From the IMG/VR virus record IMGVR_UViG_2541047899_000009: a stretch of 47,802 nt of DNA. One strand, 5' to 3'. Both the position numbers and the translations under genes were made by a program. Origin of the DNA: a virus. Its lineage: Duplodnaviria; Heunggongvirae; Uroviricota; Caudoviricetes. Every line of letters begins with the position of its first letter. Within the stretch, counting starts at the first letter, position 1. Under the pieces are notes generated by a model. It ran no database searches and was not told where the DNA came from. It was given only the letters and a program-made list of their open reading frames with translations. Shown piece after piece: positions 1 to 43,052 of this stretch.

Positions 1-1284
1 TTACAGACTTCTTGAAGGTTGCGCAGCTGTTACAACACGCGGTTGATCTTCCGCGGCATCTTCCAGTGCACTTAAATCACGGTCTTTCACTTCTGGCATT
101 TTCAGCGCAGAGATTAAACCAATCACTGAATATGCCATGATCATAATGGCGATCGGATACCAGGATTCCGTCATGGTGCAGAAAATACCCGCCAGGATAG
201 GACCAAAACCGGAAGCGATAAGACCACCAATTTCTTTAGAAATGGCCATCCGGGTAAAGCGGTTTTTACAGCCGAACATTTCTGCCATGGTAATGTTTTC
301 CAGAGCAAATAATCCCAGCACCGCACAGTTATGAATCACAATCAGTGCCACCATAATGGTGCTCGGGGCATAGCTTTTATCTACGATGATAGAAAGCATT
401 GGCCATGCCAGCACAATCGCGGAGGTATTCATAATAATATACGGGATCCGGCGACCAATTTTATCGGATAACCAACCAAGGAACGGAATGGTCATAAAGC
501 CGAGAATCGAACTGATCATCAATGCATCTGTTGGAATTGCTTTGTTAAACAATAACGTCTGCACTAAATAGCCTGCAAGGAAAGTCTGAATTAAACCGGA
601 GTTACCAGCCTGACCAAAACGCAGCCCTGTTGCCAGCCAGAAGGATTTGCTCTGGAACATGCTACCAGCAGGTGCAGGTTTTGCTGTCGGTTGGTTGCTG
701 TCGTTAACCTTCTCAAAGACCGGGCTTTCTTTCAGATTCATACGCAACCAGATAGCAAAGACCATCACGACAACGCTCGCCAGGAACGGTATACGCCATC
801 CCCACGCAAGCAGTTCCTCTTTACTGAGAATGAAGAACATAAAGGCCCAGATTGCCGTTGCGCTCAAGGTTCCGCAGTTAGTCCCCATAGCCACAAATGA
901 GGAGATAATTCCGCGCTTACCTTTTGGCGCATATTCCGCCAGCATCGTACCGGCACCGGAAATTTCCGCACCTGCACCCAATCCCTGAATAATACGCAGC
1001 GTCACCAGCAAGATGGGTGCAAAAACACCAATCTGTGCATAGGTCGGTAACACACCAATTAAGGTGGTACAGATCCCCATCATGGTGATGGTAATAAAGA
1101 GTACTTTTTTACGCCCGATTCTGTCGCCCATTTTGCCGAAAATAAATGCTCCGACAATACGCGCCACATAACCTGCACCGTAGGTTCCCATTGCCAGAAT
1201 TAACGCCATTGCCGTTGATGATTCAGGAAAAAATATTTCATGAAACACTAACGCTGCGCCGAGCGAATATAACTGGAAATCCAT
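1..1284 (-). CDS. ydfJ: MFS-family inner-membrane metabolite transporter (YdfJ-like)
   Basis: 427-aa ORF with multiple hydrophobic helices and an MFS-type loop motif (GKMGDRIGRKK); stop codon at window positions 1-3. Symbol from recalled similarity to E. coli YdfJ. Confidence 0.8.
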   Translation of the reverse strand: MDFQLYSLGAALVFHEIFFPESSTAMALILAMGTYGAGYVARIVGAFIFGKMGDRIGRKKVLFITITMMGICTTLIGVLPTYAQIGVFAPILLVTLRIIQGLGAGAEISGAGTMLAEYAPKGKRGIISSFVAMGTNCGTLSATAIWAFMFFILSKEELLAWGWRIPFLASVVVMVFAIWLRMNLKESPVFEKVNDSNQPTAKPAPAGSMFQSKSFWLATGLRFGQAGNSGLIQTFLAGYLVQTLLFNKAIPTDALMISSILGFMTIPFLGWLSDKIGRRIPYIIMNTSAIVLAWPMLSIIVDKSYAPSTIMVALIVIHNCAVLGLFALENITMAEMFGCKNRFTRMAISKEIGGLIASGFGPILAGIFCTMTESWYPIAIMIMAYSVIGLISALKMPEVKDRDLSALEDAAEDQPRVVTAAQPSRSL

Positions 1285-28407: not shown

Positions 28408-28678
28408 GATGTTACCGTAGTATGTGAGTATCCATCGAATAGATACCAAGCAAAAAAGCTCCCGAAGGAGCCTTCATTTTCACTTTTTTAAATCCAACGA
28501 CAGACGGCTGGCATTTAAGTATTGTGAAATATTATCAAATGTAATCATCATTGATTTACAAAAGATACATTTTGCCCCGAAAGGATTCATGTCAGAAACA
28601 TCAAAAGATGATGTTCTATACTGGGAACCATGACAACACGGGCATCTAAAGTGAATATGGTTTGTAATATTGTCTACC

Positions 28679-28891
28679 TCAAAGCGCCACTACATGAACA
28701 GCGGCAGGACCTTTAGGTCCGTTCTCAATACCAAATTCAACTTCCTGATTCTCAGTTAATGTTTTGAAATCGTTGCTCTGAATTGCTGAGAAATGGACAA
28801 ACACATCTTTGCTGCCATCTTTCGGCGTGATGAAACCAAAACCTTTTTCAGGGTTAAACCATTTCACTAAACCAGTCATTTTGTTAGACAT
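28679..28891 (-). CDS. cspI: cold-shock protein (CspA family)
   Basis: 70 aa; RNP1/RNP2 motifs (KGFGFI, VFVHF); C-terminus ...PAAVHVVAL matches recalled CspI. Confidence 0.85.
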
Positions 28892-29253
28892 AATTATTAC
28901 CTTTTGAAGAAATTAGCCCTTGGGCAGAATGGTCCGAAAAAAAATATCAGAGAGAAAAACCAACAAGGAAATCTCAAGAGGTACAAATAATAAAATTATA
29001 ACAATGACTGCTTCAGATAAATTTGTAACAAACCAGAACACCATTAACGCATGATTAACCACCCATAGCAAGGATTACTTTTGTAAAGAAAAACACAGCA
29101 ATGAAAGAATAGCTTTATTTATTAATAAAACGTGTCATTCTGATTAAGACCTTTTATCTTACCCTTAAGATTTCAGGAATTTTGGCTCATGGAAGAGTCC
29201 TTTTTATTTAAATTTTACATTCCGCGATGTAAATGTTCCGATTTAATATTACC

Positions 29254-31283: not shown

Positions 31284-31562
31284 GATTGTGGTGCTTTTTG
31301 TGGGAGTCATCCACTTACGCACTTTGTTTTGCCATGCCAGCAGTTAGCTTCTGCTGTAAAACTATTCATGCAGCAAACCTGCACTTCACCACAATGGTTA
31401 GCATACTTTTCCTGATTAAGATTTTGCCAAATATGCTGGCCATTGTTTCATGTATTGGACCTCCTTAAATTTTATTAAAGAAATCCAATATTCACTACTC
31501 TGTCCGTATCTCTACTCAGGCATCAGCCTTCTTCGTTATCGTATACAGACGAGCGATGAATT

Positions 31563-31778
31563 TTAATCAGTAATGATGACATTTGCTGCTGCAGGACCTT
31601 TAGCACCACTCTCTATAGAGAAGGTAACCTTTTGACCTTCAAATAAGGTTCGATAATTATCATTCTGAATCGCAGAAAAATGCACAAACACATCTTTACT
31701 ACCATCAACAGGAGAAATAAAGCCGAAACCTTTATCAGCGTTAAACCATTTTACTAAACCAGTCATTTTATTTGACAT
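31563..31778 (-). CDS. cspB: cold-shock protein (CspA family)
   Basis: 71 aa: [67 protein letters not shown]...; recalled CspB. Confidence 0.85.
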
Positions 31779-32078
31779 TCTACATTCCTTAACTTGAGCC
31801 TTTCGGCATAAATGGTTTGCATAACAGAAACGACTTCGTACTTAATTGGAGAGACTCAAAGAAGGAATAAGTGAATAACACCTGAAATGAGAACTGCTTT
31901 AGTAAACTACTTCGTATATCGTCTGTTCTTCAAACCGACGCAATCATTAACGCATAGTTGAACATATGAAGCAATGTTTATTTTAGACATCCAGCCATCT
32001 TCAACCCCATCAAAAAACTATAGCTTTCTTCAGGAACGTGTGTATAGTGCGCCAAGTTATCAGTATTAAGGAATTTTT

Positions 32079-35266: not shown

Positions 35267-35422
35267 TTACTCCTCAGGTTCGTAAGCTGTGAAGACAGCG
35301 ACCTCCGTCTGGCCGGTTCGGATTCGTACCTCGCAGAGGTCTTTCCTCGTTACCAGTGCCGTCACTATGACGGTTAAACAGATGACGATCAGGGCGATTA
35401 ACATCGCCTTTTGCTGCTTCAT
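35267..35422 (-). CDS. hokD: Hok-family type I toxin
   Basis: 51 aa: MKQQKAMLIALIVICLTVIVTALVTRKDLCEVRIRTGQTEVAVFTAYEPEE; single TM helix, canonical Hok. The upstream in-frame extension and leader are consistent with mok/sok elements. Confidence 0.9.
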   Translation of the reverse strand: MKQQKAMLIALIVICLTVIVTALVTRKDLCEVRIRTGQTEVAVFTAYEPEE

Positions 35423-35699
35423 AGCCTGCTTCTCCTTGCCTTTCGGCACGTAAGAGGCTAACCTACATGTGTCTAGCATGAAATTGGCCTCAGATTAATG
35501 TTAAGCGTCTTGCAGGACGCGTAATGTTAACTGGGGCTTTTCTCTATCTGCCTTTGGTGTTCATGCCTGAGACAGATAGCCTCAAGCACCCGCAGCCATT
35601 CTACTTAACTCCCGTCACCTCGCCAATATGAAATCAATCAGAAAGGCGAACCATAAGAGCAATAGCAAGACAATAAGGCCCGCATGGTCGTACAAAGAC

Positions 35700-38498
35700 T
35701 CAGGCACCGTGACATTTTTTGTACTTTATTCCCGAGCCACAGGGGCATTGTTCATTCCGGCCGACCGCACCAAAAACTTCAGTTAATTTAGTCTTTGCTG
35801 CTTTATGGGCAAGCTGTACGATGTAATTTGATTGATTTTGGATTTCTTGACGCTGTACACCTGTGAGGCCTTCGATATAGGGAGCAAGGCGCTGCATTTC
35901 GACATCAGCTGCTTTATGCTGACCCGATAGTGCCAATATGACTGCGTACTGGCTTCGAACCTGAATCAGTCGATGTACTAGACCTGCCTCATTGACAACC
36001 GGCAGGACATGTTGCTCCATGACTTCCTTGGCACCGTCGTAATCCTTTATGGCAACAAACTCATCCGCCAGATCTTGGCCCACCCTGACCATGGATTCCG
36101 GGGCCATGGCCAGATTGTAGAACTTCATCGAATGAATACGCAGTAATGGTGACAGTTTTCCCTGCGCATCACGAATTCTGGCCAGCAACTCCAGAGCATC
36201 AGCCATATGTTTAAAGTGTTCCTGCATATTTTCGGAATGATTAATAGTTTTCCATAATGCGTCGGCGTTTTTTCCTATGACATCAGCAGGTGTGATACCA
36301 AATAAAGAATAGTACCCTTGTATAACATTACAGCTTAATGTTTCAGCATCCTTGAGTTTTTTTAATCTCCAGAGTGCAATGGCATGGTTGTAGTCAAAGA
36401 TGCGTTTATGTTCTTCATCTGGGAGTTGGGGGCGGACTTCCTGTGCCAGCTTTTGAACTTCTCGTGCATCATTGCTTTCTGCCGAAAATAACATTCGTTT
36501 CATTGCATAGGCCATCTCTTCTTGATAGCCGAACTTGTGCTCCGCAAGTAAAGCTCCCATGATGTTTAACCTCTGAGCAATGTGGTCGGATATTCCGTCT
36601 TTAAGCTCAACGAAAACAAGGCCATCCAATGCCCAGAATTTATGAACAGGTCCCAATAAGTCCGATGTTGCAGCACGCTCCAAGCTTGCAAGAATGTCGA
36701 CCGTCACGCCCATCTCATAAAACATTTCTTGGCCTGAGAGTTCGATCAACGTCGTGACATCATTAAGCTTAATATAAAGTTGAGTCAACAACGATAACCG
36801 TTTTGTATTGCGGGTATTATGAAGACTTTCAACTAAAAGGTCTTTCAGCGCTAGTAGCGCTTTGTTCGATATACCCTGATCCATCAGTTCCAGATGTTGC
36901 AGTCCTAGCCCCCTGACAGCATCATGTACCTTCAGGGTCTGGTTTCCATAAATTTCAATAGTGCCAGTAGCGCGCATTTTCCTAATTAAAGAAGCCGCAC
37001 TGCTTGGTGAAATGTTCAGCGAATTGATTAGGAGCGTAGAAATCTCTTCGCGACTCAGCCCTACGTCAGAGAGACTGAACAATGCCAGCGCGCTCTGAAG
37101 TAGTGATTCAAATCCCTGAAATACACGTGACAGAATAATTTCTTGGGCGGTTTCCGCAGTATGGGTTTGTTGCTGGAGTTCAGCACACAGAGCATCGACA
37201 CTACGCTCATAGTCAGAAACGGCGATTTTTGCGGCGCTCTCTACATACAGGGGAAGACCACCAGTGTAAGCCCGTAGCTGCTCGTATCCCATAGCGGTGG
37301 CAAATCCTCCGATATCGTTTACAACGACAGCTACCGTATCGAGATTCCATCCCTGCAGGCCCTCGCGCTGTAGCCCCGTCATGACCTCCAGTTCGCGAAC
37401 GTTTTCGTGAGGCTGGCACAACAGCACAAAACGAATATGTGTAGTTGCATTCAGAACATCCCGTAGATTTTCCGCAGGTACACGATGGGCGTTATCCAGA
37501 ACCAGCACCAAGGTGGTACCCTGCTCTTTCAGGTAGGTATCAAAACTCCTAAGAGCCTCAAAACCACTGGCTCCGGGGAGCAAAATCCTGCGCAAACCGT
37601 CTTGGTCACGGGCTGTAAATCTAGCAGCCATCTCCCGCACCAGCGTACTGGCCAGAGCTGGACCGGGAAGATCACCGGTGTCGTAATAAGCACAAAGTGC
37701 AGTGGAGTGTAATGCGGCCTGTGCGGCCCACGCTGTCTTGCCTGCACCTGAGAGTCCACAAAGGATACGGATCCGCTCACCAGATGTGAGAGAAGGTTCT
37801 TCGTTTTGTGGGCGGTACAGTGCTGGTGGTGCAGGAAAGTCCTGTAGCTGAACGATCAACTGTTCAAATAGTTCAGTAAGTTCCTCCGTGAAAAACGTAT
37901 GTTGTCCATTGGTATCGCCTCCGGTGGCGGCAAGCTGAACCAACCCTGCTAACTTCCAAATCAAGGATTCTGGGGACAATAGTGAAAATTTCAGCTTTTC
38001 TGCTTCTGCGATACACCATGTGGCCGCATCAGCCAGAGTACTCCATGCGGGCGGAAGTGCCGGGTGACGTCCAGCTGTCGACCGGGGCCAGACAATAAGA
38101 ACATCAGAAGGAAGCTTTTTATCGTCAATCATCTTCTGAAGCAGCGGTCCAGGCGCCTGGTTTACAATAATCACAAAAGAAGCCACCCCTTCGCGGTTTG
38201 CCGAAGTATGCTCATTTCTGAGCTTTACAAATCGCTCCAGAGCCCCCGACACATCGTTGGGCATAATAGGCTTTGAACGGGTTTTAACCTGAATGTAGAG
38301 ACGTTCCTGTTTGGATTTCAGCTCAATATCCTCATCAAGCTCGACAGTTACTGAGTCCATAGCAGCCCTCTGCGCCAAAAGTAAGCAGCCTACAGCGTAA
38401 AGATGCTGGTAAAGGAACCCCCGGTGTACCGCTTCGATACGCACCAACTGCACAGGATCCAGTACGTCCAGATGTTGTTTGTTTTCACTTCCCCACAT
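35700..38498 (-). CDS. STAND-like P-loop NTPase with N-terminal nuclease-like domain, helical repeat region and C-terminal SEC-C zinc motif; candidate Avs/NLR-like antiphage defence protein
   Basis: 932 aa. Walker A GLSGAGKT (about aa 248-255), Walker B LVLVLD (about aa 330-335), possible PD-(D/E)xK-like residues in the N-terminal 80 aa (VELDEDIELK...YIQVK), about 550 aa of predicted helical repeats, terminal CPCGSGIKYKKCHG. Single large gene flanked by AT-rich spacers immediately upstream of hokD. Confidence 0.6.
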   Translation of the reverse strand: MWGSENKQHLDVLDPVQLVRIEAVHRGFLYQHLYAVGCLLLAQRAAMDSVTVELDEDIELKSKQERLYIQVKTRSKPIMPNDVSGALERFVKLRNEHTSANREGVASFVIIVNQAPGPLLQKMIDDKKLPSDVLIVWPRSTAGRHPALPPAWSTLADAATWCIAEAEKLKFSLLSPESLIWKLAGLVQLAATGGDTNGQHTFFTEELTELFEQLIVQLQDFPAPPALYRPQNEEPSLTSGERIRILCGLSGAGKTAWAAQAALHSTALCAYYDTGDLPGPALASTLVREMAARFTARDQDGLRRILLPGASGFEALRSFDTYLKEQGTTLVLVLDNAHRVPAENLRDVLNATTHIRFVLLCQPHENVRELEVMTGLQREGLQGWNLDTVAVVVNDIGGFATAMGYEQLRAYTGGLPLYVESAAKIAVSDYERSVDALCAELQQQTHTAETAQEIILSRVFQGFESLLQSALALFSLSDVGLSREEISTLLINSLNISPSSAASLIRKMRATGTIEIYGNQTLKVHDAVRGLGLQHLELMDQGISNKALLALKDLLVESLHNTRNTKRLSLLTQLYIKLNDVTTLIELSGQEMFYEMGVTVDILASLERAATSDLLGPVHKFWALDGLVFVELKDGISDHIAQRLNIMGALLAEHKFGYQEEMAYAMKRMLFSAESNDAREVQKLAQEVRPQLPDEEHKRIFDYNHAIALWRLKKLKDAETLSCNVIQGYYSLFGITPADVIGKNADALWKTINHSENMQEHFKHMADALELLARIRDAQGKLSPLLRIHSMKFYNLAMAPESMVRVGQDLADEFVAIKDYDGAKEVMEQHVLPVVNEAGLVHRLIQVRSQYAVILALSGQHKAADVEMQRLAPYIEGLTGVQRQEIQNQSNYIVQLAHKAAKTKLTEVFGAVGRNEQCPCGSGIKYKKCHGA

Positions 38499-38732
38499 AA
38501 CCTATTCCTTGAGCTATTTGTTTGACGGACTCACATTAGTACTTCAATGTAATCAATTGAACTTGAATTATAATTAAAAGAGGCAAAGAAAAGTCATTTG
38601 GCCTATTCTCCGTTGATTAATACAAACTAACGATACCAACGTTCACCTGACTCAAAGCTGACAACCAGACTAGGTCTGGGCCTGTGCCATCGAAGTGTCA
38701 ATTAATATCTGAACTAATGCTCTTTAATTTCG

Positions 38733-42994: not shown

Positions 42995-43052
42995 TTTCTG
43001 GTGACGTTTGGCGGTATCAGTTTTACTCCGTGACTGCTCTGCCGCCGTTTTT
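42995..43052 (+). ncRNA. dicF: DicF small regulatory RNA (ftsZ-targeting)
   Basis: tttctggtgacgtttggcggtatcagttttactccgtgactgctctgccgccgttttt matches the recalled DicF sequence, including the 3' stem-loop and U-tract; located upstream of dicB. Confidence 0.85.

Follow-up and report, generated by a model that had tools for sequence, protein, structure and literature searches.

A SEC-C-tailed STAND protein encoded in a Qin-like prophage of Escherichia coli is a probable Avs-type sensor-nuclease

The window analyzed here, a stretch of 47,802 nucleotides (IMG/VR record IMGVR_UViG_2541047899_000009), is a Qin-like lambdoid prophage of E. coli. Among its genes is a long open reading frame (ORF), the STAND gene of this study, whose product has the database identity WP_021564393.1 and is labelled 'SEC-C metal-binding domain-containing protein'. 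A first-pass annotation made from the DNA letters had described the 932-residue product as a three-part protein in which an effector, a STAND NTPase and a repeat region follow one another. The ORF, the motifs quoted in that annotation and the corresponding Pfam domains were all recovered in our analysis (Table 1). In the translation, VELDEDIELK...YIQVK is located at residues 52-72, LVLVLD at residues 330-335 and CPCGSGIKYKKCHG at residues 918-931.

Table 1. Features of the STAND gene, its product and its surroundings (positions are those of the window unless a locus is named).
Feature	Residues	Position	Strand	Remarks
Complete ORF	932 aa	35700..38498	-	ATG start; only ORF of that length listed
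Cap4-type PD-(D/E)xK nuclease effector domain	1-215	37854..38498	-	
Predicted catalytic motif	53-72	38283..38342	-	E53-x-D55-E-D57 ... Q70-x-K72
Conserved segment between nuclease and NTPase	205-240	37779..37886	-	
STAND NOD module	241-540	36879..37778	-	
Nucleotide-binding domain (NBD) of the NOD	241-385			
Helical domain of the NOD	386-447			GxP motif
Winged-helix domain (WHD) of the NOD	448-540			H525-D526
Walker A	248-255	37734..37757	-	GLSGAGKT
Walker B	330-336	37491..37511	-	LVLVLDN; second position Asn, neither Asp nor Glu
TPR-like alpha-solenoid	541-908	35775..36878	-	presumed ligand sensor
Linker and SEC-C zinc knuckle	909-932	35703..35774	-	C918, C920, C929, H930
Single-gene cassette, ORF and short flanks (~3 kb)		35611..38659		private to this prophage lineage; slot between DUF977 and hok/sok
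Upstream intergenic region, 234 bp		38499..38732	-	AAGGA ribosome-binding site; perfect TATAAT at 38572-38567
hokD toxin gene, intact		35267-35422		directly downstream of the STAND gene
sok antitoxin RNA		35417-35591		Rfam RF01794, 118 bits
Example of the 151-aa gene of the tail-less clade		L042:12734-13189	-	

Pfam searches assigned a domain to each end of the protein and to its center. Residues 914-931 match SEC-C (8e-10, 38.8 bits against a gathering cut-off of 20.4) and residues 239-364 match AAA_22 (2.4e-8, 34.8 bits against a cut-off of 27), with a further, weak match to AAA_16. The match of residues 25-77 to Cap4_nuclease (PF14130/DUF4297) exceeds the gathering threshold marginally (5.7e-6, 27.1 bits versus 26.2) and is partial, covering model positions 7-63 of 200; in the homolog P0239, positions 5-183 of the 200 are covered with 32.8 bits. 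Among 35 diverse homologs (49-81% identity), SEC-C was detected in 33, AAA_22 in all 35 and Cap4_nuclease in 32, and because the same three families recur in this way the matches are not attributable to chance. No NACHT domain was found by Pfam in the 932-residue protein.

A full-length AlphaFold2 model was built on the 35-sequence alignment (mean predicted local distance difference test score (pLDDT) 80.8; predicted template modeling score (pTM) 0.61). The model places an alpha/beta nuclease at residues 1-215, a STAND NBD behind it, an all-helical solenoid at residues 541-908 and a tail at residues 909-932. The pLDDT of the tail is 35-56, and the SEC-C knuckle is therefore not confidently docked and probably flexible. 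The TPR-like region, given as about 550 residues in the first-pass annotation, is indeed a TPR-like solenoid that ends in a genuine SEC-C knuckle, but it spans about 370 residues; the preceding 155 or so residues are the helical and winged-helix domains of the STAND module. For the full model, Foldseek ranked the STAND-TPR protein 6mfv and SeAvs3 (8dgc) highest, with NLR resistosomes of plants next. When the nuclease domain was searched by fold, SeAvs3 was again the best match, ahead of Lamassu LmuA (12.2), Acinetobacter baumannii Cap4 (12.0), Hachiman HamA (11.3) and Enterobacter cloacae Cap4 (11.1); restriction endonucleases, Can2, NucS and Shedu scored lower. The structural comparison with Avs and Cap4 folds that had been proposed at the outset thus recovered both. 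From these fold matches we conclude that the effector is a Cap4-type PD-(D/E)xK nuclease, the effector class of Avs3 and Avs7.

Residue conservation was scored over 25 sequences, down to 35% identity. Within the nuclease domain D55, D57, Q70 and K72 are invariant, as are H25, G27, Y30, Q31, H32, Y68 and R74, giving the signature GxxYQH ... DxD ... QxK. The domain thus combines a PD-(D/E)xK fold with conserved acidic residues and an (E/Q)xK motif, and the PD-(D/E)xK-type N-terminus that was first suspected from the sequence is borne out by the Pfam match, the fold search and these residues. The catalytic set proposed then (D55, E59, K61 and K72) is right in D55 and K72; E59 is invariant among the closer homologs only and K61 is variable, and D57 and Q70 belong in their place. 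E53 is nearly invariant. The P-loop NTPase is equally well marked, with invariant residues in Walker A (G248, G251, G253, K254 and T255), in the Walker B region (D335, N336 and R339), in the GxP motif (G414 and P416) and in the winged helix (K523, H525, D526 and R529). These winged-helix residues recall the His through which Apaf-1, NLRs and SeAvs7 contact the nucleotide. A P-loop NBD, a helical domain with GxP and a winged helix with its His are the elements by which the STAND NTPase superfamily is recognized, and all are present here, with the Asn in Walker B as a caveat.

The most conserved 30-residue window of the protein lies outside these motifs, at residues 205-235 (LFEQLIVQLQDFPxPPxxYRPQxxEP, identity 0.76). 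It is part of the segment LFEQLIVQLQDFPAPPALYRPQNEEP (residues 205-240), which is modeled poorly (pLDDT 46-72). SeAvs7 has a regulatory loop at residues 199-215 (PMC13581612), and by analogy the segment between nuclease and NTPase may be a regulatory loop that controls the nuclease or forms an oligomer interface. Across the alignment the sensor is 55-58% identical, compared with 61-69% for the other domains, and we therefore regard it as constrained and not hypervariable. The ratio of nonsynonymous to synonymous substitution rates (dN/dS) is 0.12-0.18 against alleles of 93-99.5% identity, and the gene is therefore under purifying selection.

Within the prophage the gene order runs from integrase through exonuclease, dicB/DicF, cI/cro-like genes, replication genes and DUF977 to the STAND gene, and continues with hokD/sok, DUF968 (ydfU), a Q-like antiterminator, csp, lysis, terminase, head and tail genes. 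As first noticed from the sequence, hokD adjoins the STAND gene; in the Qin prophage of E. coli K-12, hokD is preceded by relBE instead. The spacers on either side, described initially as AT-rich, are moderately so, with a GC content of 0.38-0.42 compared with 0.44-0.55 inside the gene. Homology to two related prophages breaks off at 35610, shortly after sok, and restarts at about 38660, before DUF977; in these relatives the corresponding place is taken up by 3.3-4.1 kb of unrelated genes. The STAND gene thus occupies a variable cargo slot as a cassette of one gene, in agreement with the lone-gene cargo position proposed earlier. The equivalents of window positions 35611-38659 in the related prophages are L082:1789-5928 and L083:2357-5686; one of the two carries four hypothetical genes and a 'tRNA-OTHER', the other HNH, ead/Ea22-like and DUF4406 genes. 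A scan of the 234-bp upstream spacer for the sigma-70 consensus found no canonical site. The TATAAT was read by hand and its -35 element is poor, and the promoter is thus only a candidate. Elsewhere in the window, the DicF antisense small RNA is found in the dicB region at 42996-43047 (72.5 bits), and cspA-type thermoregulator elements of the 5' untranslated region are found upstream of the prophage cold-shock genes at 28652-29037 and 31547-31939.

Of 5426 complete E. coli genomes, only 16 carry an identical copy, always on the chromosome. In one E. coli genome (NZ_OZ546984.1, 361511-365562, H6) it is split by a roughly 1.25-kb IS3-family insertion sequence (IS), ISEc52, and the fragments are annotated 'SEC-C...' and 'dsDNA nuclease domain-containing protein', making this a naturally inactivated allele. 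For the IMG/VR locus L106:8001-12049 the same insertion was deduced solely from the match length of 4,049 bp. Inactivation by IS elements is often met in costly defense genes.

The family reaches well beyond E. coli. A search of 5.8 billion proteins returned 934 matches; among the top 120, which represent Enterobacterales, Vibrio, Shewanella, Aeromonas, Pseudomonas and others, almost all have lengths of 927-944 residues. An exhaustive search of 1.84 billion representatives gave 734 matches, 286 of them at E<=1e-30. Alignments are full-length and the architecture of about 930 residues is retained down to 29% identity; longer homologs showed neither extra nor swapped domains, so that the architecture is fixed. 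In a survey of GTDB contigs with one genome per species, relatives are encoded in 210 of 185,579 species, which belong to the Gamma-, Beta- and Alphaproteobacteria, the Desulfobacterota and Sporomusa and include one cyanobacterial metagenome-assembled genome. The distribution is patchy and horizontally transferred. IMG/VR contains 11 loci only, 10 of which are this E. coli prophage allele, and carriage by a prophage is therefore exceptional for the family. The INPHARED phage set yielded two distant uncultured fragments, and the idea that the family is phage-borne as a general rule was rejected.

In a clustering of the four neighbors on either side of the gene at 80 species loci, no conserved operon partner was found for the SEC-C-bearing family. 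Several homologs adjoin other defense systems, among them complete Lamassu sets that are separate from the homolog (LmuA 3e-71, LmuC, LmuB 8e-132) and Gabija pairs (GajA 1e-240, GajB 1e-191). On an island of Vibrio cholerae that resembles an integrative and conjugative element (ICE) the neighbors are PIN_12, AbiH, an OLD-TOPRIM/UvrD pair and an AAA_13 gene, and in Enterobacter hormaechei and Yersinia they are Gabija, TIR-SEFIR, DUF5677 and a Lamassu-like trio. In Pseudomonas, AbiH lies immediately downstream of the homolog in a transposon-like chromate/metal-resistance element. Among 110 immediate neighbors (two on either side) at 36 non-redundant species loci, PADLOC recognized LmuB four times, AbiH and PARIS-like AriA-type genes three times each, and GajA, Old, MkoC of Mokosh, PDC-S50 and PDC-S51 twice each, counts that stand without a background rate of defense-gene adjacency. 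Such recurrent defense neighbors are the usual signature of a defense-island gene. Together with the tripartite effector-STAND-repeat architecture, the association with defense systems and mobile elements places the protein among the Avs proteins in the broad sense. A role in defense is supported by the neighboring Lamassu, Gabija, AbiH and other systems; the phenotype itself is a prediction.

Two of these neighborhoods show an arrangement of their own. Orthologs of about 73% identity in Enterobacter, Rahnella and Yersinia (L002, L017, L093 and L095-L097) stand head-to-head with, and divergent from, the same upstream Gabija pair (GajA of 578 and GajB of 472 residues; the Gabija of L094 is truncated), which suggests a co-transferred block of two systems. 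At the Pseudomonas loci (L084-L091, homolog P0098) the homolog and AbiH are found amid chromate, sulfate, copper and other metal-resistance genes and transposases, that is, as defense genes traveling with resistance cargo.

Over its last 20 residues the SEC-C tail hardly differs from the C-terminal zinc peptide of SecA (aligned to 1sx0 and 1ozb, E 3e-5), and it also matches YchJ (9l6b). As in SecA, a CxCx8CH knuckle of the zinc- or iron-binding type follows GRN in a Lys-rich context at the very end of the chain, behind a linker of low confidence. Unlike in the SecA C-terminal domain (PF02810), YecA and YchJ, the knuckle is joined to an immune-type STAND nuclease and not to a translocase or chaperone. 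The CxC-x8-C[HC] pattern of SEC-C is present, and metal binding is predicted from it. At the 80 species loci, SEC-C or a CGC variant is found in 60, with CxC...CH in 52, and about 20 have no knuckle. Eight betaproteobacterial members carry the variant CPCGSGKKFKKCGC; at these loci (L021-L023, L025-L027, L040 and L080) it is followed by a few extra residues and takes the place of the canonical ...KKCHG end. Sixteen of the tail-less proteins terminate in ...NPPPPQWxMP, and 15 of these 16 loci have a convergent gene of about 151 codons that starts 15-20 bp past the stop (L042, L044-L046, L050, L052, L054-L056, L061, L063, L070 and L074-L076); no such gene was clustered at L051. Its product had no match in Pfam or PADLOC and may be a trans-acting replacement of the tail or a hitch-hiker within one clade. 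Overall, the tail is dispensable for the core fold yet clearly selected. SEC-C tails are also present in the PADLOC models E2, E1-E2 and PDC-S12, and the lactococcal defense protein Rugutis carries one (PMC11381338). In full-text literature searches, no publication connected SEC-C with a STAND or Avs protein, and none named WP_021564393.

We consider it likely that the gene encodes a single-protein, NLR-like sensor-nuclease of the Avs type that acts by abortive infection and travels as prophage cargo. Observed directly are the domain identities and folds, the conserved catalytic and nucleotide-binding residues, the purifying selection, the single-gene cassette and the association with defense islands and mobile elements. 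SeAvs3 and SeAvs7 share the module order Cap4-STAND-TPR with the prophage protein, and in both a phage protein triggers tetramer assembly and thereby activation of the nuclease (PMC13581612). In the uninfected cell, the prophage protein would be an autoinhibited monomer whose bound nucleotide is clamped by the NBD and by His525-Asp526 of the WHD and whose nuclease is held away from those of other copies. The TPR solenoid would capture a conserved protein of the infecting phage, which would open the NOD, permit ATP binding or nucleotide exchange and lead to oligomerization, a step at which Avs3, Avs4 and Avs7 form tetramers. The oligomer would cluster the Cap4-type domains into an active, sequence-nonspecific dsDNA endonuclease, and destruction of phage and host DNA would result in abortive infection. 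The SEC-C knuckle on its probably flexible tail would be an accessory that may serve as a host-factor or nucleic-acid tether or as a regulator of activity.

Several features set the protein apart from its characterized relatives. The protein has about half the size of SeAvs3 (932 versus 2028 residues in the 8DGC chain), sequence or profile similarity to SeAvs3 and SeAvs7 is undetectable, its Walker B reads DN, and its NOD is nearest to those of MalT and PH0952, which are MalT-like STAND NTPases with a TPR/SUPR sensor. Other proteins with the same nuclease are controlled differently: Cap4 by a SAVED domain and a cyclic oligonucleotide, LmuA by its SMC partner LmuB, and HamA by the helicase HamB, whereas the controller here is a fused STAND NTPase. 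Membership in Lamassu was rejected, since the cassette consists of this ORF alone and has no LmuB, and 'Type II Gabija' proved to be unrelated.

Several observations weigh against an Avs-type mode of action. In PADLOC v2.0.0, including AVAST I-V, bNACHT and PD-lambda-4/Avs8, no model matched the whole protein, and at E<=1 only an LmuA-type N-terminal fragment (5.7e-7) and SEC-C tail fragments were returned. Searches of PDB with phmmer and profiles found no solved Avs chain and no structure matching the whole protein, only SEC-C peptides. The kinship with Avs proteins therefore rests on fold and architecture and not on a sequence family. The sequence route through PADLOC v2, NCBIfam and PHROGs likewise led to domain fragments only. 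With about 370 residues, the sensor is short for a characterized Avs sensor. The hhhhDN Walker B, where DD or DE is usual in STAND NTPases, may allow ATP binding with weak or no hydrolysis. The Pseudomonas neighborhood is largely metal-resistance cargo and not defense. Lastly, the phage-protein trigger, oligomerization, DNA degradation and abortive infection are carried over by analogy from Avs3 and Avs7.

A related proposal, which is compatible with the Avs-type mechanism, assigns the central role to the tail: the family would form a separate Avs lineage of compact proteins whose SEC-C knuckle recruits SecB or the ribosome or binds anionic lipid, or else binds DNA or metal as a second input, so that sensing or activation would depend on a host component. 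We regard this as unlikely, although not negligible. The near-identity to the SecA zinc peptide speaks for it, as the metal-binding domain of SecA binds SecB and ribosomes (bioRxiv 10.1101/613315), and so do the probable flexibility of the knuckle, its retention at three quarters of the loci with near-invariant ligands, the 151-residue protein in a clade that lacks it, the tails of other defense-linked proteins and the precedent of SeAvs7, which uses host EF-Tu (PMC13581612). However, the partner is proposed by likeness to SecA only, and SEC-C-type knuckles have other roles, as in YchJ, where they are zinc fingers of a DNA-binding regulator responsive to reactive oxygen species (PMC13377102). 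About a quarter of the members lack the tail and retain everything else, and it must therefore be dispensable for core function; the 151-residue protein, for its part, may merely hitch-hike in one clade. If the proposal is true, coupling to SecB or the ribosome could sample newly made phage proteins, making this a pattern-recognition receptor that depends on a host factor and answers to a phage trigger not known before, and in the tail-less clade the convergent gene would supply the lost function in trans.

The remaining explanations depart further from the Avs model. A nuclease directed against phages or other mobile genetic elements could be cued by nucleic-acid structure or cellular state, as in Lamassu or Gabija, with the TPR region serving autoinhibition or oligomerization only. 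LmuA is the best sequence match of the N-terminus and, with HamA, among its top fold matches, several homologs directly adjoin Lamassu or Gabija, and for Avs22-24 a phage-protein trigger was not identified (PMC13581612). We nonetheless judge a non-protein cue to be improbable: neither an SMC nor a helicase partner is encoded in the cassette, the best fold match of the nuclease is SeAvs3 and not LmuA, the STAND-TPR proteins studied to date bind protein or small-molecule ligands via their repeats, and the TPR region is conserved as expected of a specific binding module. Still less credible is a selfish addiction module or a prophage life-cycle function in replication or recombination, as in a nin-like region. 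The location between the replication genes and the Q antiterminator, beside the post-segregational killing locus hok/sok, would fit, as would the encoding of a potentially toxic nuclease, but related prophages lack the gene and hold unrelated genes in the slot, most homologs are chromosomal or on ICE or transposon islands and not in phages, the IMG/VR loci being almost a single allele, and an antitoxin-like partner was not found among the clustered neighbors. Least plausible of all, at a level we regard as vanishing, is a MalT-like STAND transcription activator, the alternative that the first-pass annotation had set against a role in defense. MalT senses maltotriose and has a LuxR-type DNA-binding output, whereas the output here is a nuclease with invariant catalytic residues, and the C-terminus is a SEC-C knuckle. 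Pfam found neither LuxR/GerE nor any other helix-turn-helix domain in the protein or the 35 homologs, and a regulator of this type is excluded for that reason.

Returning to the Avs-type sensor-nuclease, its status as undescribed, assumed initially, is uncertain. At least 90 clusters of defense-associated STAND sensors have been reported, and Avs7-24 named, from a seed set that explicitly took in Cap4-fused STANDs (Lee et al., 2026; PMC13581612). Because of this seed set, the family may already be catalogued, or even tested as an E. coli representative; our comparison extends to the main text of that study, which gives no accessions for Avs11-24 and mentions neither SEC-C nor zinc, so that the C-terminal knuckle sets the protein apart from the Avs proteins as described there. 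The architecture is not mentioned in the DefensePredictor paper or in the domain-centric NAR paper. The protein is a solid candidate for a defense gene and almost certainly an uncharacterized member of a class of systems already known (Avs), with minor twists in its compact size, its DN Walker B and its SEC-C tail.

To a specialist, a Cap4-STAND-TPR gene in a prophage cargo slot would come as no surprise. In Qin-like prophages, the variable slot bounded by DUF977 and hok/sok may be a cargo hotspot from which other defense genes could be mined. PADLOC v2 misses the family and annotation pipelines label its members by SEC-C only, and inventories based on that model set therefore overlook it. If the assignment is confirmed, a compact, easily cloned, prophage-borne Avs-type receptor of 932 residues would join the defense repertoire of E. 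coli, and discovery of its trigger would widen the map of phage proteins that bacteria monitor. The SEC-C tail bears on the question of how common the use of host factors is among the NLR-like sensors of bacteria, for which SeAvs7 and EF-Tu are so far the sole case.

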